A DNA stretch of 64,000 bases from Dysidea avara (GCF_963678975.1 NC_089285.1:12026725-12090724); one strand, 5' to 3'. Counted from the stretch's first letter, positions 9,234-63,625 are shown. Numbers and translations: made by a program. Notes: generated from the letters alone by a model not told the origin.

Positions 9234-9302
9234 TTAATTTGTGTATAATTATAACGTGATATTTCAATTTGAAATATAACCATACAAATGAATTACATGT
9301 AA

Positions 9303-18640: not shown

Positions 18641-19959
18641 GTTTATCAGTGTTAATTGCTAGGCTAAGACTAAAGAGAAAGAAAAGTAAGTGCTGTTATA
18701 AAAGTATATAAAGCCTGTAGTACGTGTTATCACGCTGATAACTGTCTTACCTGTAGATTCAATGAGCTTTATCTTTCCTTTAGCTCATAAAGTTTCTTTT
18801 CATTGGTAGCTAACCCTAGCTACACTGTTTTCCAGAGTTCGCTGAAGCACAATTTTATCCAGTCATGTGTTGGCTTGGGCCCATGCGTTAACAGCATCAG
18901 CTCGCTTTAGTCCACCATTTATAATTGGACAGAGAATAAGTAGCAGTCGAGGTTTACTACTAGAGCCTTATCACTACATTCGGATTTCTTGCCAACTGAA
19001 GTGATCGACATTTTAAAAAACGTACATGCGATTCTACCCCCTCCCCCTAGCGTACCATTTATACGCTCGCGAAAAAGCAGAAAATTGTTGACCACCCCTT
19101 ACATGGTTTGATATTGGGTTTCCCAGAAATGGGTACTTCTGCTCTATTTCTCGTGTTACCCTATCAAAATCAGTTTTTTATGGGTAGTGTTTGTATAATG
19201 CCATGACACTGGCTATTCTGGTGTGGAACTTGGTGGTTGACAGACCATCCATTATGCCTTTTATATGCACAAGTGACTTGTATCTAATCAGTTTTTACCG
19301 TGTTTTGATGGTTACATCAATGTTCATCACATACATAATTGGAAAGGAGAATGGTGTTGGAATGTCTTTATCTTCAGCTGAAAATAGCACAATTGTAGGC
19401 TTCTCATCTGATGCTTTTTCAGTGTGGGAGACTACTGGTACCTCCTGAATGTGTTTCACATTACAAACTTATTGGTATAATAAATGTCAAGACCACTCCA
19501 TGAATCATTATTTACATCCTACAAGAGTTGAAAATGGTGGGCTTTTATGTGCAATATCCCATTTTGAGTTCACTGTCATTCTGCTCAGTTGCGTTTGTTG
19601 GTGGTGGTGGTTTGCACTATCACTGGTTACTGACTGCACGGTACTAGTTCTATTAAGCTGCGTACAAAAAGATAGAATATATAACATGCATAAAAATAGT
19701 TTTAAAATTTTGCACTTCATTAATTAATTGCCTGAGGCATTTCTTGTCCCCAAGTGCAACTAAACCGAGCTGCTCCAAATCTTCATAATTCAGAAGTAGA
19801 AGTACTCTTTGCCTTCATCAGAAGGTCTCAATAGCCTGCACGTATGGGTAGCTAAACATTAGGTATACAGCCACACCTCTTCATCAAAGCCATTCTCTTC
19901 CAAGAGCACACATTGGTCATTAATTTTGTCCACTTCTTTGCAGTGTATGTATAAATTGC

Positions 19960-20140
19960 ATCAATACACATTGAACAGAAAGCCTGATCAGTTTTAATCT
20001 GCTAAGTTTTTGACAGACAGGCATCATTGGAGAGGTCACATAGGTTGCTCTAGTGGTTACAGTATCAAGAAGTATTCAAGGTTTGATATGACTGCAATAA
20101 ATTCACAAGTAAATGTGCGAGCAAGCTGAAAACAAAGTAT
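19960..20140 (+). pseudogene. Fragment homologous to the C-terminus of the 44619-46922 transposase
   Basis: DNA and protein similarity: 'RHHWRGHIGCSSGYSIKKYSRFDMTAINSQVN' against 'DRFHWKGHVGCSSGYNLKNYSTFDMTAINSQVN'. Confidence 0.6.
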
Positions 20141-34860: not shown

Positions 34861-34934
34861 GATATTGATGTTTGAATGTTACATATAGCAATACAGTTTC
34901 ATTCGGTGCTTCGTTCCACCTGTAGAACGTATCT

Positions 34935-35340
34935 AATCAAAAACAGCCAAGCTGTAAAAAAAGGAGTGCGGCCCTTGAAAAGGCTATGGTGAAAAAAGAT
35001 GTGAAATCCAAGGTGGCGGCCAAGAAATGGCTGTGATGGTAGGTTAATGGTAAAAATTTTAATAACGACAATTCAGGTGAATTTGGTGCCGCTTGGTAAA
35101 TTGGCACAAAATTCACCTGAATTGTCGTTATTAAAATTTTTACCATTAACCTACCATCACAGCCATTTCTGGCCGCCATCTTGGATTTCACATCTTTTTT
35201 CACCATAGCCTTTTCAAGGGCCGCACTCCTTTTTTTACAGCTTGGCTGTTTTTGATTAAATTTCACTTCTTTTTGTATTTGTATACTCCAAAGCCGGCCT
35301 ATGGCCAGCTTTGGGGCTTTTAAACCTATGTATTTTTCTT
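34935..35340. mobile_element. FB-1 foldback core copy (palindrome centred ~35100)
   Basis: Arms 'cagccaagctgtaaaaaaaggagtgcggccc...ggtgaatttggtgccgcttgg' and its mirror. Same as 59765-60090 and 60360-60840. Confidence 0.8.
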
Positions 35341-35809: not shown

Positions 35810-38575
35810 TAATTTGCAGCTGATCCCTCTACTGGGTGACTTGAAATGTAGCTGAACTCTCTACAGGGTGATCTGCTTGTACGTAGATGAACTCTTTACA
35901 AGATTCTCTCTACAGGGTGACTTGACTCTAGCTGAACTCTCTGCATGGTTATCTGTTTGTAGTTGAATTCTCTACAGGGTGATTTGTTTGCAGCTGAATT
36001 CTCTACATGGTGGTTGCTTTGTAGCTGAACTCTCTAAAAGGTGACTTCTTCTAGCTGAACTCTCTACAGGGTGATTTTTTCATAGCTGAACTCTCTACAG
36101 GGTGATTTTTTTGTAGCTGAAATCCCTACAAGGTAACTTCTTCTAGCTGATCTTTCTACAGGGAGATTTGTTTGTAGCTGAGTTCTCTACAGGGTGTTTG
36201 TTTGCAGCTGAACTCTCTACATGGGAGTTTCATTGTAGCTAAATTCTCTACAATGTGACTTCTTCTAGCTGAATTCTCTACAGGGTGACTTGTTTGTAGC
36301 TGAAATCCCTACAAGGTAACTTCTTCTAGCTGATCTTTCTACAGGGAGATTTGTTTGTAGCTGAGTTCTCTACAGGGTGTTTGTTTGCAGCTGAACTCTC
36401 TACATGGTAGTTTCTTTGTAGCTGAACTCTCTACAATGTGACTTCTTCTAGCTGAACTCTCTACAGGGTGACTTGTTTCTAGCTGATCTCTCTACAGGGT
36501 GACTTGTTTCTAGCTGAACTCTCTACAGGATGATTTGTTTGCAGCTGAACTCTCTACATGATGATTTCTTTGTAGCTGAACTCTCTACAGGGTGATTTGT
36601 TTGTAGCTGAAATCCCTACAAGGTAACTTCTTCTAGCAGATCTTTCTACAGGGAGATTTGTTTGTAGCTGAGTTCTCTACAGGCTGATTTGTTTGCAGCT
36701 GAACTCTCTACATGGTAGTTTCTTTGTAGCTGAACTCTCTACAATGTGACTTCTTCTAGCTGAACTTTCTACAGGGTGACTTGTTTCTAGCTGATCTCTC
36801 TACAAGGTGACTTGTTTCTAGCTGAACTCTCTACAGGGGATTTGTTTGCAGCTGAACTCTCTACATGGAGGTTTCTTTATAGCTGAACTCTCTACAAGGT
36901 GACTTCTTCTAGCTGATCTCTCTACAGGGTGATTTGTTTGTAGCTGAACTCTCTACAGGTGATTTGTTTGTAGCTGAACTCTCTACAAGGTGATACTTCT
37001 AGCTGATCTCTCTACAGGATGACTTGTTTCTAACTGAACTCTCAACAGGGTGATCTGTTCATAGCTGAACTTTCTACTGGGTGATTTGTTTGCAGCTGAA
37101 CTCTCTACATGGTGGTTTCTTTGTAGCTGAACTCTCTACAAGGTAACTTCTTCTAGCTGATCTTTTTACAGGACATATCTGTTTGTAGCTGAGTTCTCTA
37201 CAGGGTGATTTGTTTGCAGCTGAACTGTCTACATGGGAGTTTCATTGTAGCTAAACTCTCTACAATGTGACTTCTTCTAGCTGAATTCTCTACAGGGTGA
37301 CTTGTTTCTAGCTGATCTCTCTACAGGGTGACTTGTTTCTAGCTGAACTCTATACAGGCGATTTGTTTGCAGCTGAACTCTCTACAGGGTGATTTATTTG
37401 CAGCTGAACTCTCTACAAGGTGACTTCTTCTAGCTGAACTCTCTACAGAGTGATTGATTTTTTTGCAGCTGAACTCTCTACATGGTGGTTGCTTTGTAGC
37501 TGAACTCTCTAAAAGGTGACTTCTTCTAGCTGAACTCTCTACAGGATGATTTGTTTGCAGCTGAACTCTCTACATGGTGCTTTCTTTGTAGCTGAACTCT
37601 CTACAGGGTGATTTGTTTGTAGCTGAAATCCCTACAAGGTAACTTCTTCTAGCTGATCTTTCTACAGGGCGATTTGTTTGTAGCTGAGTTCTCTACAGGG
37701 TGTTTGTTTGCAGCTGAACTCTCTACATGGTAGTTTCTTTGTAGTTGAACTCTCTACAATGTGACTTCTTCTAGCTGAACTCTCTACAGGGTGACTTGTT
37801 TCTAGCTAATCTCTCTACAGGGTGACTTGTTTCTAGCTGAACTCTCTACAGGTGATTTGTTTGCAACTGAACTCTCTACATGTTGGTTTCTTTGTAGTTG
37901 AACTCTCTACAAGGCAACTTCTTCTAGCTGATCTTTCTACAGGGTGATTTGTTTGTAGCTGAATTCTCTACAGGGTCAGCTAAACTCTCTACAAGATGAC
38001 TTCTTCTAGCTGAACTGTCTACAGGGTGATTTGTTTGTAGCTGAACTCTCTACAGGGTGATCTGTTCGTAGCTGAACTCCCTACAAGGTAACTTCTTCTA
38101 GCTAATCTTTTTACAGGGCGATTTGTTTGTAGCTGAGTTCTCTACAGGGTGATTTGTTTGCAGCTGAACTCTCTACATGGTAGTTTCTTTGTAGCTGAAC
38201 TCTCAACAATGTGACTTCTTCTAGCTGAACTCTCTACAGGGTGACTTGTTTCTAGCTGATCTCTCTACAGGGTGACTTGTTTCTAGCTGAACTCTCTACA
38301 GGGGATTTGTTTGCAGCTGAATTCTCTACATGGTTGTTTCTTTATAGCTGAACTGTCTACAAGGTGACTTCTTCTAGCTGATCTCTCTACAGGGTGATTT
38401 GTTTGTAGCTGAACTCTCTACATGATGGTTTCTTTGTAGCTGAACTCTCTACAAGGTGACTTCTTCTAGCTGATACAGGGTGACTTGTTTCTAGATGAAC
38501 TCTCTACAGGGTAACTTGCATGTAGCTGAATTGTCTATCAGAGTAACTGTTTGTAGCTGAATTCCGTACAGAATA
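35810..38575 (+). repeat. Satellite array; 30/31-bp monomers forming a ~61-bp higher-order unit ('ctgaactctctacagggtgatttgtttgtag' + 'ctgaactctctacaaggtgacttcttctag'), ~45 dimers
   Basis: Direct reading. Uninterrupted for 2.7 kb. Confidence 0.95.
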
Positions 38576-39140
38576 TCTTACAATTCTATAATGGAATAAG
38601 TTATAAACATAGCTGAATGCTCTATTAGGGTGACTGTTCTATTAGAGTATCTCGTTTTAGCATTTGCTACACGTAGTTGCCTTTCGAATCATAACTCAGT
38701 GGTTTGTAATCCAATTCTTCTGTACTACTGCAAGGATTTCTATGATGATTATTCCAGCTACATACTGATTTTCAGCTCATTGCTCGCCTGGTAGATGTGA
38801 AAACTAATTGTTTTTTATTCATAAAAATCGATCGCGTAATTTTGACACAGGTTGCGTTTTGTGTCATATCTCCATGGTCTTTATCTCAATTCCTTTCAAA
38901 CCACAAAAAGGCACTCCTACAATGGTTACTCCATCTACATATCAAGTTTCAACTCATTCCTCCAAGGGGTTTACCCTGTAGGCATGACAGACCTTCGACC
39001 TTATTTTACGCACATAATTGGTCATAACTCCGTGTATGATCATCGGATTCCTACCAAACTTGGTACTGAAATCCGCCTTAATGAGCCCTTCAAGTGTGCC
39101 AAATTTCAGCCCTATCCGAGTACGCATTTGTGTTTTATGT
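38575..39140 (+). repeat. Element X copy 2 (starts 'gaatgctctattagggtgactgttctattagagtatctcg'), truncated at 39140 by FB-1 sequence
   Basis: Aligns with 50283-50383 + 51283-51770 and with the reverse complement of 4730-5290. Confidence 0.7.
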
Positions 39141-39141
39141 A

Positions 39142-39620
39142 AATATTTTAATAACGACAATTCAGGTGAATTTGGTGATGCTTGGTCTTGGCACAAAATT
39201 CACCTGAATTGTCATTATTAAAATTTTTACCTTTAACCTACCATCACAGCCATTTCTTGGCCACCACCTTGGATTTCACATCTTTTTTCACCATAGCCTT
39301 TCTGAGGGCCGCACTCTTTTTTTACAGCTTGGCTGTTTTGAATTAGATTTCACTTCTTTTTGTTTTTGTATACCACTATACCCCAAAGCCGAACCATACC
39401 TCCCTTGTAGAGAGGTCAGCTACAAAGAAATCACCCTGCTTCATCTTTTCTTCTTCCTGTGGTAAAGAAAAAATGATAGGTTAAAAAAAGCCCTAAAGGC
39501 GGCTATAGGCCGGCTTTGGGGTATACAAAAACAAAAAGAAGTGAAATCTAATTCAAAACAGCCAAGCTGTAAAAAAAGAGTGCGGCCCTCAGAAAGGCTA
39601 TGGTGAAAAAAGACCTCAAG
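39142..39620. mobile_element. Rearranged FB-1 fragment (right arm, one satellite monomer, then left arm)
   Basis: 'taaatattttaataacgacaattcaggtgaatttgg...' followed by '...tcccttgtagagaggtcagctacaaagaaatcaccctg' and then '...aaagccctaaaggcggctataggccggctttgggg...cagccaagctgtaaaaaaagagtgcggccc'. Confidence 0.6.
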
Positions 39621-39699
39621 GTATGGTTCGTTTCCATTTTTGGATGTTTATTGACCTCACATTTTCATCCACAATTGGATGATTATTGCAAAGGAACAA

Positions 39700-40440
39700 A
39701 ATCATCCAAAAGTGGATGATTATTGCTCATATCTCTATATAGTGAGAGATTTATGCAACAATCATCCAAATTTGGATGTTTCTTGCCATCCAATATTGGA
39801 ATACATTTGTCGCTATCCAAATTTGGATGTTTCTTGCCATCCAATAATGGAATACATTTGTCGCCATCCAAATTTGGATGTTTCTAGCCATCCAATATTG
39901 GAATACATTTCTGGTCATCCAAATTTGGATGTTTCTTGCCATCCAATATTGGAATACATTTCTGGTCATCCGAATTTGGATGTTTCTTGCCATCCAATAT
40001 TGGAATACATTTGTTGCCATCCAAATTTGGATGTTTCTTGCCATCCAATATTGGAATACATTCCTTGCCATCCAAATTTGGATGTTTCTTGCCATCCAAT
40101 AATGGAATACATTCCTTGCCATCCAAATTTGGATGTTTCTTGCCATCCAATATTGGAATACATTTGTTGCCATCCAAATTTGGATGTTTCTTGCCATCCA
40201 ATATTGGAATACATTCCTTGCCATCCAAATTTGGATGTTTCTTGCCATCCAATAATGGAATACATTCCTTGCCATCCAAATTTGGATGTTTCTTGCCATC
40301 CAATATTGGAATACATTTGTTGCCATCCAAATTTGGATGTTTCTTGCCATCAAATATTGGAATACATTTCTTGCCATCCATTTTCGGATGTTTCTTGCCA
40401 TCCAATATTGGAATACATTTGTTGCCATTCACATTAAAAG
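39700..40440 (+). repeat. Left TIR array: ~60-bp tandem units 'catccaaatttggatgtttcttgccatccaatattggaatacatt..'
   Basis: ~12 units. The ORFs in all six frames here are repeat artefacts. Confidence 0.9.
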
Positions 40441-41984
40441 TTTCTTTGATTTTAAATTGTGTATCGTAAAACATTAAAATTACTTGATGCAATTTTAAGA
40501 AGTTATGAATGATTTCGTATGAGAACAGATGGCGAAAATAAAAGGCGACAAAGTATACAAGAGGTCAACTGTCAAACAGTCAGGTATAGTGCGATTTAGT
40601 GGGATTCCACCGAACTGACACATGCCCACAAGAATACTGCTGTCAAAGGCAACTACACTGGAGAAAAATCACTTTTACGGAATAGCCGCAATGCAATCAA
40701 TTGTTAAGCACAAAAATCCTTATACGAGGCCAAATATTGAATTTAAAACCTTTGCCAAAACTCAAATTTTTAGTCTGCCTGCATTCTTGCCTGCCTCCTG
40801 GCCACAGCTGCAAGGCAAGCAGGCAGCAACAACAGCTTGGCAGCATTGGGTAGACACACCCAAGCTCAAAAATATTTTCAGACCCATTCTCTAAACCCTT
40901 CCAATAAGTTTCTATGATTTATTACTGTATAAGAAGTTGTGTTTAACAGAATTTCCGCTAACTGACTGACTGCTTTCAGCCTAGCATACAGTACAGGGTG
41001 TAGCTCAACTACAGGTTTGATTTCTTCACTATTCAATGTTGCTTCTTCCAGAGATGCATCATGCAATGAGTGCATCATGGACTCACTTTGTCCTTCTTTA
41101 TGTACCTTTTTGCTGACGGTTTTGCCTATTAAACCAACAGGTGCAATGGAATTTCAAGTTCAGTTAGGGATTGTAGAATTTAAAAGTAAGGAAACAAGGG
41201 AGGTTTCCTATAGCTGCAGGTGAATTAGGGATTATCTGCAGGTATAATAGGAAACCTCCCTTGTTCCTTCTTTTAACTTCTATGATCCATATTTTATTGC
41301 ACTTTATTATAACATAATTACGATTGGTGCACCTGTGTATTAAAAGAATGAATGGTGCCTGACGTATAATATATAGACGCACACCCAATCTATCACACTA
41401 TCAATTATCACAAAGTAAAACAGCAGTTACTGCTTGTTTCAAGCTATGCATGCATTTCAATGAACGACAGTATAACAATTGCTAAAAGCTGGCAAATTAA
41501 CACCACAGGCTTTTACCCACCACTGCAGAGCTGTACTACTTACAGCCATCTCCTGATTGGCCAGGGCTCCATGAAAACCCCAGATCGTATGTGTGTGTTC
41601 ACCATTGAACTTGATAAATGCAGCCAGAAAAAACATATTTGTTGTTTCTTACATTAAAATCTGATAGTGAATTGATGTGCATTTGAAACAAAAAAATCAA
41701 ACTTGCTGTCATGGGCTATATCCAGGTTTTGTCAGACTAAGTCATAAATTTGCTCTGCCTTTATAACCTAACTATGATAAATTGCAAAGTTAGAGACCAA
41801 ATGAAGCAGTGTATGGCCACCATGCACTTCATGTCAGAATAATAAATTCCCTGGTTGCATGTGCCTTTTGAATATCCATCCATCTTCTGTACTGTGCCTT
41901 TCCTTTTTATCATTTAGGAGGAAACCATTTTGACTTCAATAAGGTGTTGATCCTCCATGTTAACACCTTCTTTAGAAGAACTAG

Positions 41985-42275
41985 TGATTAAAAAATTATT
42001 AATTCTAAAAATGGAAGTAGGTTCCAGCGATAAAAAAACTATGGAAACAAGTGATATGCATGGTGCCAGGTATTACAACATATAGCTATGTGAGAAAATC
42101 CGTACTTTGACATCTTACCACCATCTGGTCAATTAATGTCAAAGTAGGGATTTTCTCACATAGCTATATGTTGTAATACCTGGCACCATGCATATCACTT
42201 GTTTCCATAGTTTTTTTTATCGCTGGAACCTACTTCCATTTTTAGAATTAATAATTTTTTAATCACTAGTTTCTT
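41985..42275. mobile_element. Palindromic MITE-like element (~135-bp arms)
   Basis: 'gtgattaaaaaattattaattctaaaaatggaagtaggttccagcgataaaaaaactatggaaacaagtgatatgcatggtgccaggtattacaacatatagctatgtgagaaaatcc' mirrors the sequence ending 'aattttttaatcactag'. Confidence 0.75.
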
Positions 42276-42824
42276 AACTTTTTTTGATATAGCATATAGA
42301 TGATGGTATTTTAGTACCTTTGGCTCTGACTGCTCTATTAGAGTATCTCGATCTTGCTGCCGATTTCACACGAGTATCTCAATCTCTCAATTGGAGGCAT
42401 GTACGCTTGTTTTCTGTAGTCGAATACAGCTAGACAATTGGTAATGGGCGTAGTCAGTATACCCGATCGTTGGAAACGAGCGCGTGCATTAGCTAATTGA
42501 TATGGGCGTGGCAGCGTGTTATTATTTCACTTGCTCGTTTAGCTAATTCTAAGCATCTATTCTTCTTAGTAAGCTGTTAAAATGTATTCTGGTGTCCAAT
42601 ACGGCTGCTCTATATGGAAAGTGTCGATTTGAAGTAATTAACACATTCGCATGGTTTCCTTGACTGAAGAAGAAAGACGATCCGTAATTGAAGATAAAAG
42701 GAAAGGCAAAGCGCAGATGGCATACACTCGTCGGAACCCGAAAAGGCACATGCCACCAGTGAGTTTAATATTGTGGCAAAAGATAGTGGTGGTGCGCTGC
42801 TTCGTTTGGCCTCTAGCCTTGCGA

Positions 42825-42880
42825 ATGTGGTCAGGCTGGCAGGCTGGCAGGCAGGCAGGCAGGCTGGCAGGCAGACGAAA
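42825..42880. repeat. (CAGG/CTGG)n microsatellite
   Basis: 'caggctggcaggctggcaggcaggcaggcaggctggcaggcag'. Confidence 0.85.
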
Positions 42881-43381
42881 AATCCGGATTTTGGCGATTT
42901 TTAAAATTCGATATTTGGCTTACTGTAAACGTTTTCTTTTTTTAAACGGTTTGATCATTGTTAGATGGACTATAACTATTCCGTAAAGGTGATTTTGGCT
43001 GCGTGCAATATTTCTGGGTTGCTTTTTAGAGGCAACAATTTGGCGGGCGCCGTCGATTTCATATGGAAACCTACTTAAACAGTACTATCGTACTGTTTGA
43101 TGTATTTAGACAACACAAAATTATTTTAAGGATTTGACTGCCATCAAGTTACAATTTCTATATTACTGTGCATGCGCTCCTTTGTCTGATGTATAGTCTG
43201 GTCACATAGTTAGCTTACGTATTTTGCATAACTACCAACCATCACTCAAACAATCAGTCAATTTAATACTAAGACTACATGCTACTAAGAGAACAACAGT
43301 TTTAAGAGTACACTATACAATTGTCAAAGAAAAGATTACTTTTAAAAATGAGTTGTTAATAACACCTATCAGTGTATATAG

Positions 43382-44138
43382 CTAATGATTCCTGCGTCCT
43401 TTCCTAAGTGCAATGGGAGTGCTTTCTTCACCATCAAGCGGGTCGTATCCCTTCCTTTTTTTTCTAATGGGTGCTTTAGTGCTAGCATCCTCCACTTGTG
43501 TTGTGGGTGCCCGGTCAATATCAACAGGAGGAATATTTCTATCTTTAGGATCTTCTGGCTCCTGTTGAATATATGTTTCGACATCCAAGCCATAATGTGC
43601 ATAACACTTTGTGATAATGATTTTCAGAGCAGTGCTCCAATTCCCTAAAATGAGTCGATTAGTTAAGGCTTTTATAACATACATAGAGCTTACCTTCATA
43701 ATCTGGAGGTGGATTAGTAACACTTTGAAATGGAATGTCATCAGGCCACCATGTAGGCTTAGGAGAACTCCAAGTTATGCCAGTATCCTTCAATATTCCT
43801 CTAATAATTGATTTCATTGTCAACCCGTTGAGGTAACATAGTTTATCTGGCAAAGGTGCAAGAAGTATGGAGGGATTGGTGATTTCTATTTCTTCTTCCA
43901 TCCAATCACTGCTTAATAAGATCTCTTCTTTGTGAGCTTCAATTACCCTGGTAATCCTTTTGTCTCCAAAGACATTGAGGCTGTTAGTTTTCATTGAAGA
44001 GTAGGCAAATCCAATTGCAACTCCAAGCTGGCCAAGCTCTTGACACTTCTTTGATATCACATCAAGCTTTCTCTTCACATCCCTTGCATCATTGTTTATC
44101 TTCCTATTTGCTGCCATCACTTCACTCACTAACTCCAA
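43382..44138 (-). CDS. Second ORF inside the large TIR element; unknown function. Two overlapping frames (43659-44138 and 43382-43741) suggest one intron or one frameshift
   Basis: 159-aa and 119-aa ORFs. A K/R-rich tail ('KAPIRKKRKGYD'). No recognisable domain. Confidence 0.35.
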
Positions 44139-44618
44139 CTGCTAGCCTAGAATCTGACTTCATGGTTAAATACTAAACAGCATAGGTCTACTTCAAACAC
44201 ATCAACACTATTGACACCTCTAAGACATTACTCACCTGCTAAGTATCACAGTGTAAATAATTACAACCATAAGTCTGCTACATCAGCACAGACTTTTCCT
44301 TTATGCCTAAAGGTCATAGAATAAAATTTCACTCTTCACTTTTGGGTGAAATTTTAATATCATGGCAGCTAGGAAAGGAGTACAGCCAAAGCAGTATGCA
44401 GCAAAGAAGAATTTGGTCTGCAAGAAGGTATATACTACAAATAATGGTTTTATGTGTAGTTACTGCATGTTTTACACAGAAAGGAATTCAGCAAAAAGCA
44501 ACTCTAGAGCAAGAAGTCTATCATCACAAGCAGGTAATTTGAAGTGAAATAGTCACAATACTGCCATGCAAATCCACAGTTAGGTGATTTCCCAAAGAAG
44601 ACAGCTTACATTAGAAAT

Positions 44619-46922
44619 TTGAAACTCTCAGGGCGATATTTTTCTCTCAAATGCAATGATGGATTTGTGATAGCCGATTGTGATGATAAAGGGATTCTAA
44701 AAGAGGGTTATTGCTTGGTTCAAAGAAAGGTAGTAAGGAGGACCGATTCTACAGCTGCATTTGCAGTATTACTGTGTTCATGTCCAGCTTCCAAACAACA
44801 GAACTTTAGGATTTGTTCCTTGCCTACAATATTAAAGGAAGAAGAATTTGAAATGATCATTAAAATGGAAGCATCTGAATACTGTATTCACAGCCAGTCT
44901 ATTGAAAATCTCTTTGATGTTTTAGATCATTCTTCGGACAGTGATGATACTGATAATGATGAACCTGTGGTAGACATAATTAGTTTTACTCCTCTCCTAA
45001 TATCAGTATTTGACGGCAATGCTTATGGGCTAGTAGGCCACAAAAGAAGTAAGAAATTGTACTGCTTAACTTGTGAATATGATTGCCACCATGTTACCCA
45101 AACTCAAGAATGGTGCAGTAGTAATAATGTTCACCTAGACTTGATAGAGAATTTCTCTGAAGAATCTAGCTACACCTCAATTTCATACAAGCCAATTCCC
45201 TATCCATTACCTAGACACCTTAGGCGCCTGCATGACAAACATGAAATGGGTAAATGTGAATTTCCACTACAATTAATTCCTTCAGAAAGTGATTCCTCAA
45301 CATGTGCTCATGGAAATTCTTTCAACATGGATGATCCTGTTTCACGTAACTGGATTTCCAGAAAAGGTGTTACAATATACAAGGAAGCTGTGACAATAGA
45401 TGATTTAGAAAGGACAGCCTACTATCGGCCAACAACAGGAAAATGTAAATGCAGACTTGAGTATGATGGACAAGGAGACCTGATCTTTAACCTGGATGGA
45501 AAGCATATGTTTTATTATGGATTTTTGCTACTATATCTCCATTTAATGCTGGAAGGAAGAAATCCCTTAATAGCATTCTATCGCTCAAGCTGTAAGTCAT
45601 TTTACATTCAAAGTGAATCCAAACCAGTTCATGTTAATCTCTTGAGGCAAGCCTGGAATGCATTTGCAAGGTTATTGGACATTAACTGGAATGAATCATT
45701 CAATTGTCACCTATGCGGATTAGCACCACAAACCATTATATGTGATGGCACTCTGATTGGATTCCGAAAAGATTTAGCAAGTGCTGCCTTTTCTGAAACA
45801 GTTCCAGAAGAAGGAGCCATTATCAAAGGAAGCGAACATACTGATCGTGTACTACTCAAGTCTTTAAAATCTAGGGAACTGCTCCTAAAATATTCAGGTT
45901 ACTCCAAACAAAGACGATGCTTGAGCAGTAATTCTGGATTGAACCTGGCTGAGTTTTCCCAGTTTAAAAAGTTATGTAAAAAGGAACAATGTAACGAGCT
46001 TGCAGAATTGTTAGATTATTTATCTGCCGACAAAAATCCCAAGATATCCCCTTCTGAATACATGGAGTTTTTCAACGAGCTGTCTCGCTGCTCTCCAGTC
46101 TGCGGAACTTTTCAAGTAGCAGGGAATTCTCAAGCATTAGAAGCCATTAAAAAAGTGTGTGCTGGTCTGAATCTTAGGCACCCTTCTCAGATGTCAGATT
46201 TAAAAGCTATTCAAGAACATGCTCCAGTTTTAGCAAATGTTTTGCTTAACTGCTCTTACCCTCTACCAAAACAATTTCTTGATTTTATGCAGCTTCTAAT
46301 TTCATATATTTCTGCCCCATTTGGCAAAAGGGATGCACACTTTTCTGAGCCTGACATTGGAAGTCGGCTTTCATTTTTTCCTAACCATCCTCTAGTTCGT
46401 GGAGTAGGAAAATACGCATCAGATCTTAAACTGTTGAGTCAAGAAAAAGACTCATGCCGAAAATATGCTACTCACCACCCTACTTTGACGCCAGGTATAT
46501 TCACGCTATACTGTCCTCATGGAATCTGTTATGGATTTGAAGTGATGAGAAACCATGAGAGCCCAAGAACTCCATTTCAAATTTTTTTTACAAGATTCTT
46601 GCAACCTCCAAAGGTGATAATTTATGACAATGCATGTAAGTTGCATCAATACATCTTGAACAGAGAGCCAGATCATTTTAAATCCACTAAGTTTTTGATA
46701 GACAGGTTTCACTGGAAAGGCCATGTAGGTTGCTCTAGTGGATACAATCTTAAGAATTATTCAACCTTTGATATGACTGCAATAAATTCTCAAGTAAATG
46801 AACAAGCAAATGCTGGACTCCAACGAATAAAATCACACGTTTCCTACATGAAAGAAGACAACTTCGTGTTTCATATCAAGCTGTTTCTTGCATTAACAAA
46901 TAATAGAAAACAGCAAATATAG
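44619..46922 (+). CDS. 767-aa transposase-like protein, possibly Kyakuja/Dileera/Zisupton (KDZ)-type, internal to the long-TIR element
   Basis: Long intact ORF with Cys/His clusters ('CHLCGLAPQTIICDGTLIGFRKD', 'YDNACKLHQY', 'DRFHWKGHVGCSSGYNLKNY'). A second degraded copy of its C-terminus is at 19960-20140. The family assignment is from memory of KDZ motifs, not from a search. Confidence 0.4.
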   Translation: MKLSGRYFSLKCNDGFVIADCDDKGILKEGYCLVQRKVVRRTDSTAAFAVLLCSCPASKQQNFRICSLPTILKEEEFEMIIKMEASEYCIHSQSIENLFDVLDHSSDSDDTDNDEPVVDIISFTPLLISVFDGNAYGLVGHKRSKKLYCLTCEYDCHHVTQTQEWCSSNNVHLDLIENFSEESSYTSISYKPIPYPLPRHLRRLHDKHEMGKCEFPLQLIPSESDSSTCAHGNSFNMDDPVSRNWISRKGVTIYKEAVTIDDLERTAYYRPTTGKCKCRLEYDGQGDLIFNLDGKHMFYYGFLLLYLHLMLEGRNPLIAFYRSSCKSFYIQSESKPVHVNLLRQAWNAFARLLDINWNESFNCHLCGLAPQTIICDGTLIGFRKDLASAAFSETVPEEGAIIKGSEHTDRVLLKSLKSRELLLKYSGYSKQRRCLSSNSGLNLAEFSQFKKLCKKEQCNELAELLDYLSADKNPKISPSEYMEFFNELSRCSPVCGTFQVAGNSQALEAIKKVCAGLNLRHPSQMSDLKAIQEHAPVLANVLLNCSYPLPKQFLDFMQLLISYISAPFGKRDAHFSEPDIGSRLSFFPNHPLVRGVGKYASDLKLLSQEKDSCRKYATHHPTLTPGIFTLYCPHGICYGFEVMRNHESPRTPFQIFFTRFLQPPKVIIYDNACKLHQYILNREPDHFKSTKFLIDRFHWKGHVGCSSGYNLKNYSTFDMTAINSQVNEQANAGLQRIKSHVSYMKEDNFVFHIKLFLALTNNRKQQI

Positions 46923-48664
46923 ACAGGAAAGTCATGTGTACATATACGTAGGTCAGAAATTATGGTCTGAAAAATCGCACAGTATGATCATTTACATGCA
47001 TTGTATAACATGTATTGTATGTTGTGATTGAAAAAGAATGGACTTTTTCACTAGGTTTGTGGTAGTACTGTTTAAGTAATTTTTACCCCTATAATAGCTA
47101 AAAAAAGTCATCGCCATCAAAAATCACCTAGAAATATTATGCACAGCAAAAATTAGCATTAAACGCAAGACAACAATTGTATTCGGTGGAATATTTAAAT
47201 TTAAGAAGTTGCTAATTCTTAAATTTGGTCTGCCTCACCAGTCGCAAGGCTAGAGACCAAAACAAAGCAGCTTATGGTCACCATTTTATTTCACAACAGT
47301 TAGCTCACCGGTGGCATGTGCCTTTTCTGGTTACAAAGAATATCCACCTTCTGCACTTTGCTTCTCTTCTCCTCTTCAATCACATGGTTGTCTTCTTCAA
47401 GCAAGGAAACCATATTCATGCACTAATTTTCTGTATCGACACCTTCCTTAGAGGAGCGTTTTAGTTTTTGTCACCACAAAACCATTTCTCAAGTGTTTAT
47501 ATTCTACTAGTAGAATAAGAAGCAATATCATTAAGTGTGGTAGGGTCATGGATAGTAATTTTGCTGTTTTCGTTGCTTTCTATTGTTTGTTAATGCAAGA
47601 AACAGCTTGATATGAAACACAAAATTGTCTTTTTTCATGTAGGTTTATTAAGTGCGGTAGGTTCATGGCAGTGATTGTCAAGGTTCATGATTCTTGCCAA
47701 AAATACGCATCAAAAACAGACTTGCAAACTCATTGCGTCATTCCATTATGTAGTTCTAAAAGATAGTAAGTCACTCTTCTGAATGTAAATACATGAAATT
47801 AGCAGGGAGAAAGACATCTTGATTGCCTGTCTAGGCCTAATCATGGACTTTTTCACCTTTCTGTACTTTTTCAAAACATCTTTAACCAGGCTGTGGAGCC
47901 AGGTGTCTTACAGACCTTCAGCACTTGTTAAGTGCTGTAAAGCATTAAAATAAATAGATTCAGCAGCATTGTATGACTAAAGTTAAGCACGATTCCGCCC
48001 ATATTTTGTGTACATGTGTGTGTGGCTATAATGGGAACTAAAATGTATGCACTCAGTGGCATTGTGCTACTACCAGTATCTTCTTGTTTCATTATTGTGA
48101 TCCCTACTCATGGTGAAAAATTTCTAATCCAAAAAGTTGGAGAAACTCATAGGATGCTTTTTGGGCCATTTTGAAGTAGAATGCACTCAGTGGCACTGTG
48201 TTGCTATCTTCTTGTTTCAGTGCTTTTATTATTGTGATCCCTACACATACTAAAAATTCCACAGAAACTGATCATCTGCAGCTGTATGCTACCAATCTCA
48301 CTTAAAATAATTGAGGTTTCAATAACCTCTATTTGGGGGACTCCAATGTTTTTGAGTACTGTTTCTATGGGCCGTAAATGGAGGTCGACTTGTTAGTGTA
48401 CTACAGGAAGAAGATATCGAGCTAAAACTAACAGGTACAGCTATAAGGCAATAACACAATTTTTTTTACTCGGGTTTAAATTTTTCGCCTGTTTTTCCGA
48501 GTAGAGGTAAATTAGCATTTCTTTAACAATACCTGGTGATTTCATTTCGAAATTATCTCTAGAAGTCGCATGATAGGTCCTTAGAAGTATTCTTCGTGGG
48601 AAGCTGTACTCGAAAACGTAAGAGTCCCCTAAATAGAGTTTGCAAGACGTCATTTCGGAAATAG

Positions 48665-49260
48665 TCTATATTGGATGGCAAGAACCATCTAATTTTGGAA
48701 AGCAAAACTTACATTCCAATAATGGATAGTAAGAAACATCCATTTTTGGAAAGCAAAACTTATATTTCAATATTGGATGGCAAAAACCATGCGATTTTGG
48801 AAGGCGGAAGTTACATTCCAATATTGGATTGCAAGAAACATCCAATTTTGGACGACAGAAATTACATTCCAATATTGGATGGCAAGAAACATCCAATTTT
48901 GGAAGGCAGAAATTACATTCCAATATAGGATGGCAAGAAACATCCAATTTTGGACGACAGAAATTACATTCCAATATAGGATGGCAAGAAACATCCGATT
49001 TTGGACGACAGAAATTGCATTCCAATATTGGATGGCAAGAAACATCCAATTTTGGAAGGCAGAAGTTACATTCCAATATTGGATGGCAAGAAACATCCAA
49101 TTTTGGACGACAGAAATTACATTCCAATATTGGATGGCAAGAAACATCCGATTTTGGAAGGCAAAGTTTACATTCCAATATTGGATGGTTAGAAACATCC
49201 GATTTTGGAAGGCTAAGTTTACATTCCAATATTGGATGGTTAGAAACATCCGATTTTGGA
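48665..49260 (-). repeat. Right TIR array: the same ~60-bp unit in inverse orientation ('ggatggcaagaaacatccaattttgga...attccaatatt')
   Basis: Reverse complement of the 39700-40440 units. Confidence 0.9.
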
Positions 49261-49524
49261 TGCTTCTTGCATACATCTCTCACTATATAGTGAATCAAGC
49301 AAATATCATCCACTTTTGGATGATATTTGCTTACATAAGCACTCACTATATAGAGAATCAAGCAATAATCATCCACTTTTGGATGATGTTTGCTTATGTA
49401 ACTATAAGAGAGATGAGTAATAATCATCCAAAATGGATGATTTAGTGAAGCATCATCCATATTTGGATGAAAATGTGAGGTCAAAAAGCATCCGATTTTG
49501 GAATTTGACTATACCTGGAGGTCT

Positions 49525-50283
49525 ACAAGGTTATCCTTCTAGCTGATCTCTCTACCGGATGACTTGTTTGTAGCTGAACTCTCTACAGAGTGGTTTGTTT
49601 GTAGCTGAATTTTCTACAGGGCAATTTGTTTGCAGCTGAACTCTCTACATGGTAGTTTCTTTGTAGCTGAACTATCTACAATGTAACTTCTTCTAACTGA
49701 ATTCTCTACAGGGTGACTTGTTTCTAGCTGATCTCTCTACAGGGTGACTTGTTTCTAGCTGAACTCTCTACAGGGTGATTTGTTTGTAGCTGAACTCTCT
49801 ACAAGGTAACTTCTTCTAGCTGATCTTTCTACAGGGTGATTTGTTTGTAGCTGAATTCTCTACAGGGTGACTTGTTTGTAGCTGATCTCTGTACAGGGTG
49901 ACTTGTTCCTAGCTGAACTCTCTACAGGTGATTTGTTTGCAGCTGAACTCTCTTACATGGTGGTTTCTTTGTAGCTGAACTCTCTACAAGGTGACTTCTT
50001 CTAGCTGATCTCTCTACAAGATGACTTGTTTCTAACTGAACTCTCTACAGTGTGATCTGTTCATAGCGGAACTTTCTACTGGGTGATTTGTTTGCAGCTG
50101 AACTCTTTGCATGACTGTTTCTTTGTAACTGAACTCTCTACAAGGTAACTTCTTCTAGCTGATCTCTCTACAGGGCAATTTGTTTGAGCTTAACTCTCTA
50201 CATGATGGTTTCTTTGTAGCTGAACTCTCTATTAGGTACTTTCTTCTGGCTGATCTGACTACAGGGTGACTTGTTTATAGCTG
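49525..50283 (+). repeat. 30/61-bp satellite array (same family as 35810-38575)
   Basis: Direct reading. Confidence 0.95.
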
Positions 50284-51990
50284 AATTCCCTACAGAATAA
50301 CTTGCATAAATACAGCTAAATGCTTTATTAGGGTGACTGTTCTATTAGAGTATCTCGATCTCGCATTTGTTACATGTAGTTGTCTTGTAATTGTAATTGT
50401 AATTTTTAAGCAGGGAGTCCACTCAGTAAAACTGATTTTCAGTGGAGCCCTGAACAAACATACAATAGACACATACAATAACTAATAATATACAAAAAAA
50501 CAAACATACATACACAACTAAGGATACATAGACAAAATTACACAGGAATTAAGAATTAAGATAATAATTACGAAATGACGACAAAGTGGCAGCCCCAGTA
50601 ACAGTGGACTAAGGTTGTTCCATAAAACAGTTCCTCGGTAGAAAAAAGTTTGCTTGCCATAGTTGATAAACACTCTAGGAACAAATAAACGATTAACATT
50701 ACGACTAAGATGACCAGTAACATCCTTCGAAAACTGAAATATATCATGTAAATAAGGAGGAGAAATTCGATGTAAAGATTTAAAAATCTGAATAGCTGTA
50801 TGAAAACGGCGATGTTCAGTCAATGTAAATTGAAACTTGGAACTGAAAGATGACGGCAGCTCATGCATAAATTTGGGATGAATCCTTTCAATCATACAAG
50901 TCTGTTTCACTGTAGATGGAGTCCAGATAACATCACAGTAATCAAAAAGTGGCATCACAAATGCTGAATATAATACACACAACACTGCAGGTGGCAGAGA
51001 CCCAAACCGAATAATTGAAGCAAGCCTTGATCTAACTTTAGACAACATATTACAAATATGCAAGTTCCAAGACAACGCAGAGTCAATTAATACTCCAAGA
51101 TACCGAACAGAATGCACCCGAGACAACACACTACCACCAATTGAGACAGAAAGGGTCTGACCTGCCACCCTCTGACGGCTACCAATGAGCATACAACTAG
51201 ACTTATCAACATTTAAACACAAACGTGAGCTCCCTAACCATGTAGCCACAGAATTCAGATCTGATTGTAAACCAGATCTTTTGAATTGTAACTCAGTGGT
51301 TTGTAATCTGATTCTTCTGTACTACTGCAAGTACTTTCTATGATGATTATTCCAGCTACACACTGATTTTCAGCTCGTTGCTCTGAACGATTTGCCTGGT
51401 AGACACGAAAACTAATAGTTTTGTTATTTATAAAAATCTATTGCGTAATTTTGACACAGGTCGGGTTTTGTGTCATATCTCCATGGTCTTTATCCCGATT
51501 CCTTTCAAACCACAAAAAGGTACTCCTACGATGGTTACTCCATCTACATATCAAGTTTCAACTCATTCCTCCAAGGGGTTTACCCTGTAGGCATGACAGG
51601 CCTTCGACCTTATTTTACGCAAATAATCGGTCATAACTCCGTGAATGTTCATCGGATTCCTACCAAAGTTGGTACAGAGATCCGCCTTAATGAGCCCTTT
51701 AAATGTGCCATATTTCAGCCCGGTCCGAGTACGCATTCGTGTTTTATGGCGGATTTTGCGAAGTGTGCAAAATGAAGAAAAAAGCGAAAAAATTAAAACG
51801 AAATTTTGTTCACTCGTATCTCGGAAATGGCTGGAGCGATTTTCTTTAAAAGTGGTGTGTAGACTCCCTTAGCTGGCCAGCACCTCTCTAGCAAATTTGG
51901 TTCCAATCGGATAAGGGATCACAGAGCTACATAGGTGTGAAAATTTCATTTTATTTCTTCCTGTTAATATACTCACGGGTGGCACGCCGG
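50283..51990 (+). repeat. Element X copy 3 (50283-50383 and 51283-51990), interrupted by a LINE fragment
   Basis: The two parts align to the two sides of copy 2 around 'gtagttgcctttcgaatcataactcagtggtttgtaatcc'. Confidence 0.7.
50383..51282 (-). mobile_element. 5'-truncated CR1/L2/RTE-like non-LTR retrotransposon 3' end (RT C-terminus + 3' tail), flanked by a ~15-bp imperfect target-site duplication
   Basis: ORF 50518-51249(-): '...VRYLGVLIDSALSWNLHI...LCVLYSAFVMPLFDYCDVIW...LERIH..F...RR...FK..H...P.YL..IF'. The tail is (ttacaa)n. Flanks: 'tcttgtaattgtaa' against 'tcttttgaattgtaa'. Confidence 0.65.
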
Positions 51991-59730: not shown

Positions 59731-59764
59731 TATCATGTCGTAACTTATACTGTGTATATTATTA

Positions 59765-60090
59765 ATCTAATCCAAAACAGCTAAGCTGTAAAAATAGTGT
59801 GCAGCCCTCAAAAAGTCTATGGTGAAAAAAGATGTAAAATCCAAGGTGGCAGCCAAGAATTGGCTGTGATGGTAGGTTAATGATAAAATTTTAATAACGA
59901 CAATTCAGATGAATTTTGGTGCCGCTTGGTCTTGGCACAAAATTCACCTGAATTGTCGTTATTAAAATTTTTACCATTAACCTACCATCACAGCCATTTC
60001 TTGGCCGCCACCTTGGATTTCGTATCTTTTTTCACCATAGCCTTTTTAAGGGCCGCACACTTTTTTTACAGCTTGGCTGTTTTGGATTAG
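59765..60090. mobile_element. FB-1 foldback core copy
   Basis: Palindrome 'ccaaaacagctaagctgtaaaaatagtgtgcagccctc...gaattttggtgccgcttggtcttggcacaaaattc...' with its mirror. Confidence 0.8.
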
Positions 60091-60094
60091 ACTT

Positions 60095-61249
60095 CACTAT
60101 ACAGAATTCAGCTACGAACAAATCACCCTGTAGAGAGATCAGCTAGAAGAAGTTACCTTGTAGATCGTTCAGCTACAAACAATTCACCCTGTAGAGAGAG
60201 CAGCTAGAAGAAGTCACCTTGTAGAGTGTTCAGTTACAAAGAAACCACCATGTAGAGTTCTGTAATAAATATATGTATTATATATATAATTTGTACATTT
60301 ATTGATAAAATCAGAAATTTTTAAAGTATTAATCTGCTTCATCTTTTCTTCTTCCTGTAGAAAAAAAAGGTTTAAAAAGCTCCAAAGCTGGCCATAGGCC
60401 GGCTTTTGGGGTATACAAATACAAAAAGAAGTGAAATCTAATCCAAAACAGCCAAGCTGTAAAAAAAGTGTGCAGCCCTCAAAAAGGCTATGGTGAAAAA
60501 GATGTGAAATCCAAGGTAGCGGCAAAGAAATGGCTGTGATGGTAGGTTAATGGTAAAAATTTTAATAACGACAATTCAGGTGAATTTTGTGCCAAGACCA
60601 AGCGGCACCAAAATTCATCTGAATTGTCGTTATTAATATTTTTATTATTAACCTATCATCACAGCCATTTCTTGGCCACCACCTTGGATTTCACATCTTT
60701 TTTCACCATAGCCTTTTTGAGGGCCGCACACTTTTTTTACAGCTTGGCTGTTTTGGATTAGATTTCACTTTTTTTTGTATTTGTATACCCCAAAGCCAGC
60801 CAATAGCCGGCTTTGGAGCTTTTTTAACCTATCTTTTTTACTTTACCACAGGAAGAAGAAAAGATGAAGCAGGTGTTAAATACTTTAAATATTTCTGAAT
60901 TTATCAGTAAATGTACAAATTATATATAATACATATATTTATTACAGAATTCTCTGCATGGTGGTTTCTTTGTAACTGAACACTCTACAAGGTGAATTCT
61001 TCTAGCTGACCTCCCTACAGAGTGAATTGTTTGTAGCTGAATTCTGTACAGGTGATTTGTTTGTAGCTGAACTCTTTACAGAATGATTTCTTTGTAGCTG
61101 AACTCTCTACAAGGTAACTTCTTCTAGCTGATCTTTCTACAGGGTGATTTGTTTGTAGCTGAATTTTCTACAGGGTGACTTGTTTGCAGCTGAACTCTCT
61201 ACATGGTGGTTTCTTTGGAGCTGAAATCTCTACAACGTAAATTCTTCTG
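60095..61249. mobile_element. Complete foldback (FB-like) element. Inverted satellite termini (60095-60262 reverse; 60960-61249 forward) flank AT-rich segments and the long palindromic FB-1 core (60360-60840)
   Basis: Mirror symmetry about ~60600. 'tatatataatttgtacatttattgataaa...cttcatcttttcttcttcctgtag...ccataggccggctttgggg...cagccaagctgtaaaaaaag' and its reverse complement lie on the other side. The satellite monomers at the two ends are in opposite orientation. Confidence 0.75.
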
Positions 61250-62315: not shown

Positions 62316-63625
62316 AATTCTTCTAGCTGATCTTTCTACAGGGTGATTTGTTTGTAGCTGAATTTTCTACAGGGTGACTTGTTTGCAGCTGAACTCTCTA
62401 CATGGTGGTTTCTTTGTAGCTGAAATCTCTACAAAGTGAATTCTTCTGGCTGATCTTTCTACAGGGTGATTTGTTTGTAGCTGAACTTTATACAAGGAAA
62501 CTTCTTCTAACTGATGTCTGTACAGGGTGAATTGTTTGTAGCTGAACTGTCTACAAGGTAACTTCTTCTAGCTGATCTCTCTACAGGGTAATTTGTTTGT
62601 AGCTGAATTCTGTACAGGTGATTTGTTTGCAGCTGAACTCTTTACAAAATGGTTTCTTTGTAGCTGAACTCTCTATAAGGTAACTTCTTCTAGCTGATCT
62701 TTCTACGGGGCGATTTGTTTGTAACTGAATTTTCTACAGGGTGATTTGTTTGCAGCTGAATTCTCTACATGGTGGTTTCTTTGTTGCTGAACTCTCTACA
62801 AGGTGAATTCTTCTAGCTGATCTCTCTACAGGGTGATTTGTTTGTAGCTGATCTCTCTACAAGGTGATTAGTTTGTAGCTGATCTCTCTGCAGGTTGATT
62901 TGTTTGTAGGTGAACTCTCTACAGGGTGATTTGTTTCTAGCTGATCTCTCTACAGGGTGATTTGTTTCTAGCTGAACTCTCTATAAGGTGATTTGTTTGT
63001 AGCTGATCTCTCTGCAGGTTGATTTGTTTGTAGCTGAACTCTCTACAAGGTGATTTACTTGTAGCTGAACTCCTTACATTGTGTCTAGTTTCTAGCTGAT
63101 GTCTCTACAGGGTGATTTATTTTGTAGTTGAACTCTCTACAGGGTGATTTGTTTCTAGTTTATCTCTCTACAGGTTGATTTGTGCGTAACTGATCTCTCT
63201 ACAAGCTGATTTGTTTGTAGCTGATCTCTCTGCAGGTTGATTTGTTTGTAGCTGATCTCTCTACAAGTTGATTGGTTTGTTGCTAATCGCTCTAAAGGTT
63301 GATTTGTTTGTAGCTGAACTCTCTGCAAAGTGTTTTGTTTGTAGCTGATCTCTCTACAGGGTAATTTGTTTGTAGCTGAACTCTCTCCACAGTGACTTGT
63401 GTATAGCTGAATTCTCTAGAGAGTGACTTAATTGTAGCTGAACTCTCTACAGGGTGCATGACTTGTTTATAGCTGAACTCTCTTCAGTGTGACTTGTAAT
63501 GTTCTGAATCTCTACAGTGATATATTTGTAGCTTAACTCTCCACAGGGTGACTTGCTTCTTGCTGAACTGTCTATAAGATTAACTGTTTGCAGCTGAACT
63601 CCCTACAGAATAACTTGTAATGTAA
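62316..63625 (+). repeat. 30/61-bp satellite array continuing the right terminus of the FB element
   Basis: Direct reading. Confidence 0.95.

Follow-up and report, generated by a model that had tools for sequence, protein, structure and literature searches.

A 64,000-nt stretch of the genome of Dysidea avara (GCF_963678975.1 NC_089285.1:12026725-12090724), which we will call the window, contains a 9.9-kb mobile element at positions 39618/39619-49521 (the boundary is uncertain by 1 nt). Comparison of its sequence with a second copy and with related elements suggests that it is probably an autonomous, recently active cut-and-paste DNA transposon from the Zisupton clade of the KDZ superfamily. 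That it is a mobile element of the Zisupton type seems very likely. Besides the transposase, the element encodes an accessory protein that we are confident is similar to the DNA-binding protein NRF1, and near both of its ends it has arrays of short palindromes. We propose, with a slight preference and partly by analogy with the En/Spm transposon, that the NRF1-like protein rather than the transposase reads these arrays. The same layout, with inverted arrays, a divergently transcribed NRF1-like gene and a KDZ transposase, is common to at least eight related families.

Copies and ends of the element

The 767-amino-acid (aa) open reading frame (ORF) of the transposase gene is identical, residue for residue, on two contigs (L001 and L002) of the public sample ERZ25068803. 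L002 is the locus of the window: it is 99.6% identical, flanks included, and its right array is longer by one 51-bp unit. The other contig, L001, holds a second copy of the element. It is 99.74% identical to 39619-49521 of the window (9.6 kb compared), and its flanks are wholly different. The left array of L001 is three 51-bp units shorter (39763-40435 of the window versus 5250-5765 of L001), so array unit number differs between copies that are otherwise nearly identical. The identity between the two copies ends sharply, with AGGTATGG at the left boundary and ...CTATACCTG(G/A)AGG at the right one. L001 is inserted in a different satellite, with the 8-bp direct repeat CATTATGG on each side; if the element and one copy of CATTATGG are removed from L001, then the host satellite unit is restored. 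Two intact copies are on record, and both ORFs are intact in the window element. An earlier note on this DNA had placed a 9.9-kb element at 39612-49524. The size was right, but the coordinates overshoot the sequence that is shared with L001 (39619-49521). The same note considered the transposase gene to be multicopy, and L001 and a degraded fragment elsewhere in the window (see below) agree with this.

The features of the element, by position in the window, are:

39618-39762, plus strand: left terminal inverted repeat, non-tandem; starts with (A/G)AGGTATGGTTCG; three spaced palindromic sites and the conserved box TTGACCTCACATTTTCATCCA
39763-40435, plus strand: left subterminal array; 13.2 copies of a 51-bp unit, 94% matches (Tandem Repeats Finder, TRF)
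40436-43384: internal spacer, with a (CAGG)n microsatellite at 42832-42874 (TRF)
43385-44117, minus strand: NRF1-like gene, 228 aa; exon 1 at 44117-43694, 49-nt GT-AG intron at 43693-43645, exon 2 at 43644-43385
44118-44361: divergent intergenic region, presumed from its position to be a bidirectional promoter
44362-46922, plus strand: KDZ/Zisupton-type transposase gene; proposed exon 1 at 44362-44427 (MAARKGVQPKQYAAKKNLVCKK), intron at 44428-44579, exon 2 at 44580-46922
47570-47644, minus strand: inverted 75-nt duplicate of the 3' end of the transposase gene (tblastn match to aa 742-766, 88% over 25 aa), within the non-coding 3' spacer at 46923-48667; this inverted repeat is also in L001
48668-49260, minus strand: right subterminal array, inverted relative to the left array; 11.6 copies of a 51-bp unit, 89% matches (TRF)
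49261-49521, minus strand: right terminal inverted repeat; ends with ...GACTATACCTG at 49517, followed by GAGG (AAGG in L001); placed by the end of the identity with L001 at 49521 and by the alignment of ends

Each arm of the element is about 0.8 kb and consists of a non-tandem terminal inverted repeat of about 150 nt followed by the tandem array, and the two arms are inverted relative to each other. Outside each array, the non-tandem region is about 150-260 nt, and the two such regions are inverted copies of each other, with the pattern AGGTAT(G/A)GT ... TTCCA....TGGATG ... TTGACCTCACATTTTCATCCA. A search for inverted repeats found that the arms are about 80% complementary, in opposite orientation, over about 560 nt. 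When we aligned the ends, the terminal inverted repeats (about 150 nt) were conserved at both ends and across families; for instance, the left terminus aligns with the right end of the window element and with the ends of two relatives (L003 and L005). The terminus that is conserved between families is (C/G)AGGTAT(G/A). At the right end, both copies have four more nucleotides, (G/A)AGG, past the canonical ...CCTG, and these travel with the element.

The earlier note's description of the ends needs some revision. It correctly had the outermost 60 nt or so of the two ends as inverted copies of each other, but the GACCTC that it took as terminal is mostly flank or junction sequence. It described inverted ends of about 0.8 kb, made of tandem subrepeats with a 60-bp period. 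The arrays are indeed in opposite orientations, but the arms include the non-tandem repeat of about 150 nt as well, and TRF gives a period of 51 bp. The note also raised the concerns that other copies might lack the inverted arrays or that the terminal match might come from a generic satellite. We found that the arrays are retained in other copies and in eight related families, and that the terminal sequence is present only at the ends of elements. (The conserved terminal box TTGACCTCACANTTTCATCCA had 0 matches in JGI metagenome contigs.)

The subterminal arrays

Each unit of the left array reads CATCCAAATTTGGATG-TTTCTTGC-CATCCAATATTGGAAT-ACATTTCTTGC. There are two palindromes per 51-bp unit, which in the left arm are CATCCAAATTTGGATG and CATCCAATATTGGAAT. 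In the right array, the spacer is GTAATTTCTGC and the first palindrome is CTTCCAAAATTGGATG. The spacer variants are specific to each arm, and the left and right arrays are each homogenised separately. Overall, the palindromes are 10-16 bp long with the core CCAAATTTGG or CCAATATTGG, and there are about 50 such sites per element.

With at most one mismatch, the motif ATCCAANNTTGGAT occurs 39 times in the 64-kb window, versus 0.23 occurrences expected from shuffles. All of these matches lie within 39667-40413 or 48816-49468. Because the motif is confined to the ends of the element, the arrays are specific to the element, and we ruled out that they arose from a generic satellite. The long ORFs within the arrays are artefacts, because the 51-nt period (17 codons) is free of stop codons.

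The transposase gene

As the earlier note reported, an uninterrupted 767-aa ORF lies at 44619-46922. The frame is open upstream of 44619, although it has no start codon there, and a GT...AG intron (44428-44579) joins it in frame to a short, conserved exon 1. We infer that the full transposase has about 802 aa, and it is probably of the DDE type. The ORF encodes a SWIM-like CSC..CIH motif (aa 53-88), a CxC4-type cluster, and the conserved acidic residues D376, D670, D695, and E728. Twelve homologues span this region, and 9 of them keep the SWIM signature CSC-x(n)-C(I/V/W)H; this is a signature only, and there was no match to SWIM in Pfam.

The assignment to KDZ comes from the relatives of this protein. 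A profile built from 19 homologues matched 5413 cluster representatives at E ≤ 1e-3. Five of the full-length relatives (P0026, P0027, P0029, P0030, and P0036) match this family profile at E = 1e-161 to 1e-247, and the same five pass the cut-off of Pfam's KDZ family (PF18758; 26.8-35.3 bits versus a cut-off of 26.6). Their KDZ matches map to the C-terminal region, which corresponds to IIYDN...DRFHWKGH...NSQVNEQAN in the window protein. The cut-off for CxC4 (PF18717; 26.9 bits) is passed by the relatives P0028 (34.4 bits), P0029 (29.0 bits), and P0075 (66.8 bits), while the window protein is below it. Already among the 19 first-round homologues, 4 match KDZ (down to E = 3.3e-6) and 7 match CxC4 (down to E = 2e-8). 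Neither the window protein nor its relatives match Transposase_21. The earlier note's suggestion that the transposase resembles KDZ proteins is supported by the relatives that pass the thresholds for PF18758 and PF18717.

A further, partial copy of this gene lies outside the element, close to where the earlier note had seen it (19960-20140):

19953-20126, outside the element: degraded transposase C-terminus, 72% identity over 58 aa, E = 7e-23

The NRF1-like gene

On the opposite strand from the transposase, ORFs of 159 and 119 aa overlap in different frames. A canonical 49-nt GT-AG intron, with the splice predicted from the sequence, joins them into a 228-aa product. This product matches Nrf1_DNA-bind from Pfam (PF10491; 31.6 bits, cut-off 23.5, E = 1.7e-7) and, by phmmer, positions 72-225 of the human NRF1 chain 8k4l_A (E = 2.3e-6). 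The alignment runs from the end of the dimerisation domain through the linker and the DNA-binding domain, and the motifs KP.WWP.DIP(F/W) and W(S/T).AL..I...CY..(H/Y)G are common to both proteins. A profile for exon 1 also matches the NRF1 structure 8K4L (E = 1.4e-4). So the ORF that the earlier note had described as unknown is present, but it is part of a spliced gene for a DNA-binding protein that we are confident is NRF1-like. Homologues of exon 1 in other families stop at the same (Y/F)EG position and then read through into GTAAG, so the position of the intron looks conserved.

Between families, tblastx found that only the transposase and NRF1-like genes are conserved and that the rest of the interior is not. 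In particular, comparison of the internal spacer (40436-43384) to related elements by tblastx found no conserved coding stretch.

Related elements

We fetched the loci around transposase homologues from seven other samples. In eight further families, the palindromes in the arrays are family-specific (such as ATCCAA..TTGGAT, TACCAATATTGGTA, or TTGCCA....TGGCAA). For each locus, we list the identity of its transposase to that of the window element, the period or spacing of the array, the palindrome, and, where available, the termini and the target duplication:

L003 and L013: 70%; 51-bp period; ATCCAAATTTGGATG; termini CAGGTATAG...CATACCTC; ATTGATG (7 bp, L013)
L005: 76%; 51-61 bp spacing; TTCCAAATTTGGATG; (T/C)AATATTG, 7/8 match
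L014: 50%; 61 bp; TCATCCAAAATTGGATGA
L006 and L007: 48%; 61 bp; TACCAATATTGGTA; termini CAGGTATG...CCTACCTC; AAGTAAAC (L006) and GCCAGGAT (L007)
L011: 46%; 61-90 bp; CATCCA.TTTTGGATG
L009: 44%; 91 bp; TTGCCA.TTTTGGCAA; CACCTAGG
L004: 54%; 61 bp, on one side only; CATCCAATATTGGATG

The target duplications of the relatives are 7-8 bp. L006 and L007 are 99.97% identical over 5775 bp, and L014 is from the same sample as these two, so two families with different palindromes are present in one genome. The palindromic site of L009 is TTGCCATTTTTGGCAA. In L001, L003, L005, L006/L007, L008, L009, L011, and L014, a homologue of the NRF1-like gene is found upstream of the transposase gene, at a distance of about 0.5-1.5 kb, and is divergent from it. 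L004 has only a fragment of the NRF1-like gene, 9 kb upstream.

In the most distant relative, L010 (27% transposase identity), an NRF1-like gene is again upstream and divergent, and the precomputed annotation lists PF10491. At 7184-7601, 7893-8384, and 8869-9234, L010 has the NRF1-like gene (a confident Pfam match), an ORF with a weak match to Peptidase_C48 (ULP-type protease), and a 23-bp array. In this array, TGCGCG occurs 28 times, and the canonical half-site of NRF1 (TGCGC) is part of that sequence. The array is one-sided, with all copies in direct orientation, and we did not find an inverted partner array within 14 kb. We take the TGCGCG array as a hint that the accessory protein is the one that reads the arrays.

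All of the homologues of both proteins are from metagenome or read-archive assemblies (ENA, JGI, and Logan), and none has a curated name. The contigs with homologues carry eukaryotic genes, and the related loci hold introns, BEL/Pao and piggyBac elements, and GIMAP genes. From these features we presume a eukaryotic and probably animal host, and the introns together with the animal-type transposons hint at an invertebrate. Given the 49-nt intron and the spurious ORFs that the arrays create, gene callers of the prokaryotic type mis-annotate these loci in metagenome assemblies; prokaryotic gene-calling rules split both genes at their introns.

How the ends of the element might be recognized

We propose that dimers of the NRF1-like protein would coat the palindrome arrays at both ends of the element. 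The bound dimers would label the ends, bring them together, and recruit the transposase, which would cut at the (C/G)AGGTAT termini and insert the element by a staggered cut of 7-8 bp. NRF1 is an obligate homodimer on the 10-bp palindrome GCGCATGCGC, with one TGCGC half-site for each monomer (PMC10810270). The palindrome cores of the window element (CCAAA|TTTGG and CCAAT|ATTGG) have a 5+5 geometry like that of GCGCA|TGCGC. There is a precedent for two proteins in En/Spm, which requires both the transposase TnpD and a second protein, TnpA, that binds to the subterminal repeats (PMC2613891). Also, the motif, the transposase, and the accessory protein diverge together across families.

Several points weigh against our interpretation. 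The 767-aa ORF had no Pfam match at E ≤ 1, and the membership of the window protein in KDZ rests on transitive homology. The best fold matches of the transposase are RNase H-like, in line with KDZ, but its structure model is weak (predicted local distance difference test score, or pLDDT, of 67), and the AlphaFold model for exon 1 of the accessory gene (pLDDT 53) was too poor for a fold search. There are four extra nucleotides at the right end, and the position of the boundary could be off by 1 nt. Since the left flank of the window copy is rearranged, this copy does not show a clean target duplication. In L008 (43% transposase identity), the gene pair is present but no arrays were detected. 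Finally, the zinc-chelating N-terminus of the transposase could be the reader of the palindromes, and the co-variation of the motif with the family fits either protein as the reader.

We also considered that this might be the same transposon but with the arrays bound by the SWIM-like and CxC4 zinc modules of the transposase, and with the NRF1-like protein employed otherwise (for example, in transcription of the element, in repressing transposition, or at host promoters). Many DDE transposases, such as the Ac transposase, bind subterminal repeats directly, the N-terminal Cys/His clusters of this transposase are conserved, and the divergence of the motif follows that of the transposase as well as that of the accessory protein. 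However, perfect palindromes of 10-16 bp suit a protein of the NRF1 type, which binds GCGCATGCGC as an obligate homodimer (PMC10810270); the accessory gene is kept in every family examined (in L004, as a fragment only); and in L010, which is the most NRF1-like case, the gene adjoins an array of TGCGCG with the half-site TGCGC. We consider this alternative to be possible but rather doubtful.

Two other explanations would change what kind of sequence this is, and both seem very improbable. The 9.9-kb unit might be immobile, with the two copies arising by segmental duplication of a domesticated pair of genes within satellite DNA, and the arrays might be ordinary satellite. Having just two intact copies on record, both in satellite-rich DNA, and no clean target duplication in the window would fit with this. 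But the match between the copies ends precisely with the inverted termini, the 8-bp direct repeat of L001 restores a satellite unit when the element is removed, relatives have clean 8-bp duplications at unrelated sites, the array motif is found nowhere else in the 64 kb, and the two copies are 99.74% identical with both ORFs intact. The other possibility, which strikes us as scarcely credible, is a foldback (FB) or Galileo-type element in which the KDZ-like gene is a passenger. Long inverted ends made of tandem subrepeats, as seen here, are a hallmark of FB in Drosophila and are present in some Galileo copies too, and the earlier note had remarked on this resemblance. The resemblance holds for the architecture but not for kinship, since the enzyme belongs to KDZ rather than to the P-type or FB-associated transposases. 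There is no P-element/THAP or other transposase; the only conserved coding sequences are the KDZ and NRF1-like genes; eight families have inherited the arrays, the termini, and the KDZ gene as a set; and the 7-8-bp duplications and (C/G)AGGTAT termini suit Zisupton (PMC12730594).

Comparison to known transposons and to NRF1

Zisupton and KDZ (Kyakuja-Dileera-Zisupton) elements were reportedly described by Bohne et al. in 2012 and by Iyer et al. in 2014, and KDZx1 from Cryptococcus deneoformans is said to be active. Zisupton is the only well-characterised KDZ group and makes 8-bp target duplications (PMC12730594), and its canonical architecture is KDZ + CxC4 + SWIM with 8-bp duplications (Huang et al., bioRxiv 10.1101/2024.08.15.608186). 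The element in the window resembles Zisupton in its transposase family (relatives pass PF18758 and PF18717), the SWIM-like CxC..CxH, the terminal inverted repeats and 7-8-bp duplications, and the large size (6-14 kb) with extra ORFs. Unlike the Zisuptons in the papers that we could search, it has ends of about 0.8 kb with 51-bp tandem units that bear palindromes, and it has a conserved second gene for an NRF1-like DNA-binding protein. Also, the Zisuptons of fish and nematodes are multi-exonic (PMC9297572), while here there appear to be few introns, with two exons proposed. We did not find any Zisuptons with array ends and NRF1-like genes in the searchable literature, whose coverage did not extend to the 2012 Zisupton paper or to Repbase, and the literature that we searched had nothing on NRF1 together with Zisupton or a transposase.

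Functionally, the closest known system is En/Spm (a CACTA element), by analogy only. In both cases, a transposase and a second, DNA-binding protein (whose binding is predicted here and was demonstrated for TnpA) are encoded by the same element, there are many copies of a short motif subterminally at both ends, and families have diverged from each other in the motif and in the binding protein (PMC2613891). But TnpA is unrelated to NRF1, and the En/Spm sites are 12 bp in mixed orientation instead of regular tandem arrays of palindromes. CACTA elements have CACTA termini and 3-bp duplications, whereas here we see (C/G)AGGTAT and 7-8 bp; for these reasons, and since there is no match to Transposase_21, we rejected membership in CACTA/En-Spm.

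The resemblance to foldback elements, which is in the long terminal inverted repeats with tandem subrepeats, is likewise an architectural analogy. Galileo has a P-type THAP transposase and FB usually encodes none, and the transposase here is unrelated; the terminal sequences differ; and only this element has an NRF1-like gene. We rejected membership in FB/Galileo because the only conserved coding is of the KDZ and NRF1-like types, and because ends with tandem repeats are a matter of architecture and do not mark a family. The element is best filed as a new lineage within the known Zisupton/KDZ kind.

The accessory protein has dimerisation and DNA-binding regions that are homologous to those of NRF1, Erect wing, and P3A2 (PF10491; 8K4L), with low similarity (about 30 bits). 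It differs from NRF1 in that its gene is carried by a transposon and in that it is short, at 228 aa, with no counterpart of the C-terminal region of NRF1, which carries the activation function. Its predicted targets are AT-rich (CCAAATTTGG or CCAATATTGG) instead of GCGCATGCGC.

The left flank and the rest of the window

Just to the left of the element, the window is rearranged:

39281-39617, outside the element: rearranged left flank, with a perfect 94-nt inverted repeat (39281-39374 and 39520-39613) around a 145-nt loop

A 5-nt filler, CCTCA, separates this hairpin from the element. Within the loop lies a junction copied in inverted orientation, in which 31-bp satellite that ends with ...TCTACAAGG is followed by G and then by AGGTATGGTT. 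In other words, when the loop is reversed, a fragment of the 31-bp satellite is joined to the first 10-12 nt of the left end (cgAACCATACCT-cccttgtagagaggtcagc...). It looks as if the original left junction was duplicated in inverted orientation, which might have come about by template switching at the foldback repeat described below, by hairpin repair, or by aberrant transposition. The 9 nt that follow the right end match TCTACAAGG, so this sequence may be the target duplication of the window copy if the junction in the loop is the original one. This is only suggestive, as TCTACAAGG is also a common variant of the 31-bp satellite and its register is off by 1 nt relative to L001. We considered whether the hairpin was an assembly artefact, but the same structure is present in an independent assembly (L002), and the arm is from a multicopy foldback repeat.

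That repeat, from which the hairpin is built, resembles a miniature inverted-repeat transposable element. It is found in the window at 34931-35340, 59764-60100, 60380-60900, and 39139-39613, and in L001 at 633-983. It has near-perfect palindromic arms of about 200 nt, centred on ...GGCAC/GTGCC..., and often adjoins the 31-bp satellite. A second case of an inverted duplication beside the end of an element is in L003 (16790-17210, which is the same as 2335-2755 of L012), where a 209-nt arm by the right array is duplicated in inverted orientation, with 99% identity and a 3-nt loop. L013 carries this arm once. Both L003 and L013 have about 2.5 kb of foreign sequence between the outer terminus and the array.

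The 31-bp satellite (TAGCTGAACTCTCTACAGGGTGATTTGTTTG) occupies 35906-38579, 49522-50295, 60103-61234, and 62324-63608, in both orientations. The sequence that follows one satellite array (38580-39139) recurs after the next (50314-51748) with about 90% identity, which suggests that the transposon inserted into a larger repeated unit.

The window is transposon-rich eukaryotic DNA. Other ORFs from mobile elements are at 7641-9230, 9306-10736, 14937-16664, and 17741-18328. They include a PIF/Harbinger-type transposase (DDE_Tnp_4 and HTH_Tnp_4, on the minus strand), with a 39-bp tandem array (10351-10815) that overlaps it; a second fragment with HTH_Tnp_4; and two ORFs with YqaJ-like exonuclease domains, one of which also has a SAP domain. 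Scans of the window with Rfam and for tRNAs had no matches.

Implications

Few KDZ or Zisupton elements are fully described, and this one is complete and apparently active, with defined termini and target duplications. It also offers a testable model for the recognition of transposon ends, in which an NRF1-like dimer would bind about 50 palindromic sites per element, and the related families provide several natural pairs of protein and site.

Within the literature that we searched, this is the first link between the DNA-binding fold of NRF1 and mobile DNA, and it bears on the origin of the NRF1 family. We know of no established origin for the DNA-binding domain of NRF1 and Erect wing. Paired-domain, THAP, BED, and CENP-B proteins are precedents for the domestication of transposon proteins. 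We speculate that one entire clade within the Zisupton/KDZ transposons might be two-component, with an NRF1-type homodimer that reads the ends, and that the host's NRF1/Erect wing might be a domesticated transposon protein, although we think that this is unlikely. Domestication could be the case if the transposon-borne NRF1-like proteins proved to be older and more diverse than the host factor. If this is true, then the palindrome arrays would record the re-tuning of NRF1-type specificity, as in GCGCATGCGC, CCAAATTTGG, TACCAATATTGGTA, and TTGCCA....TGGCAA.

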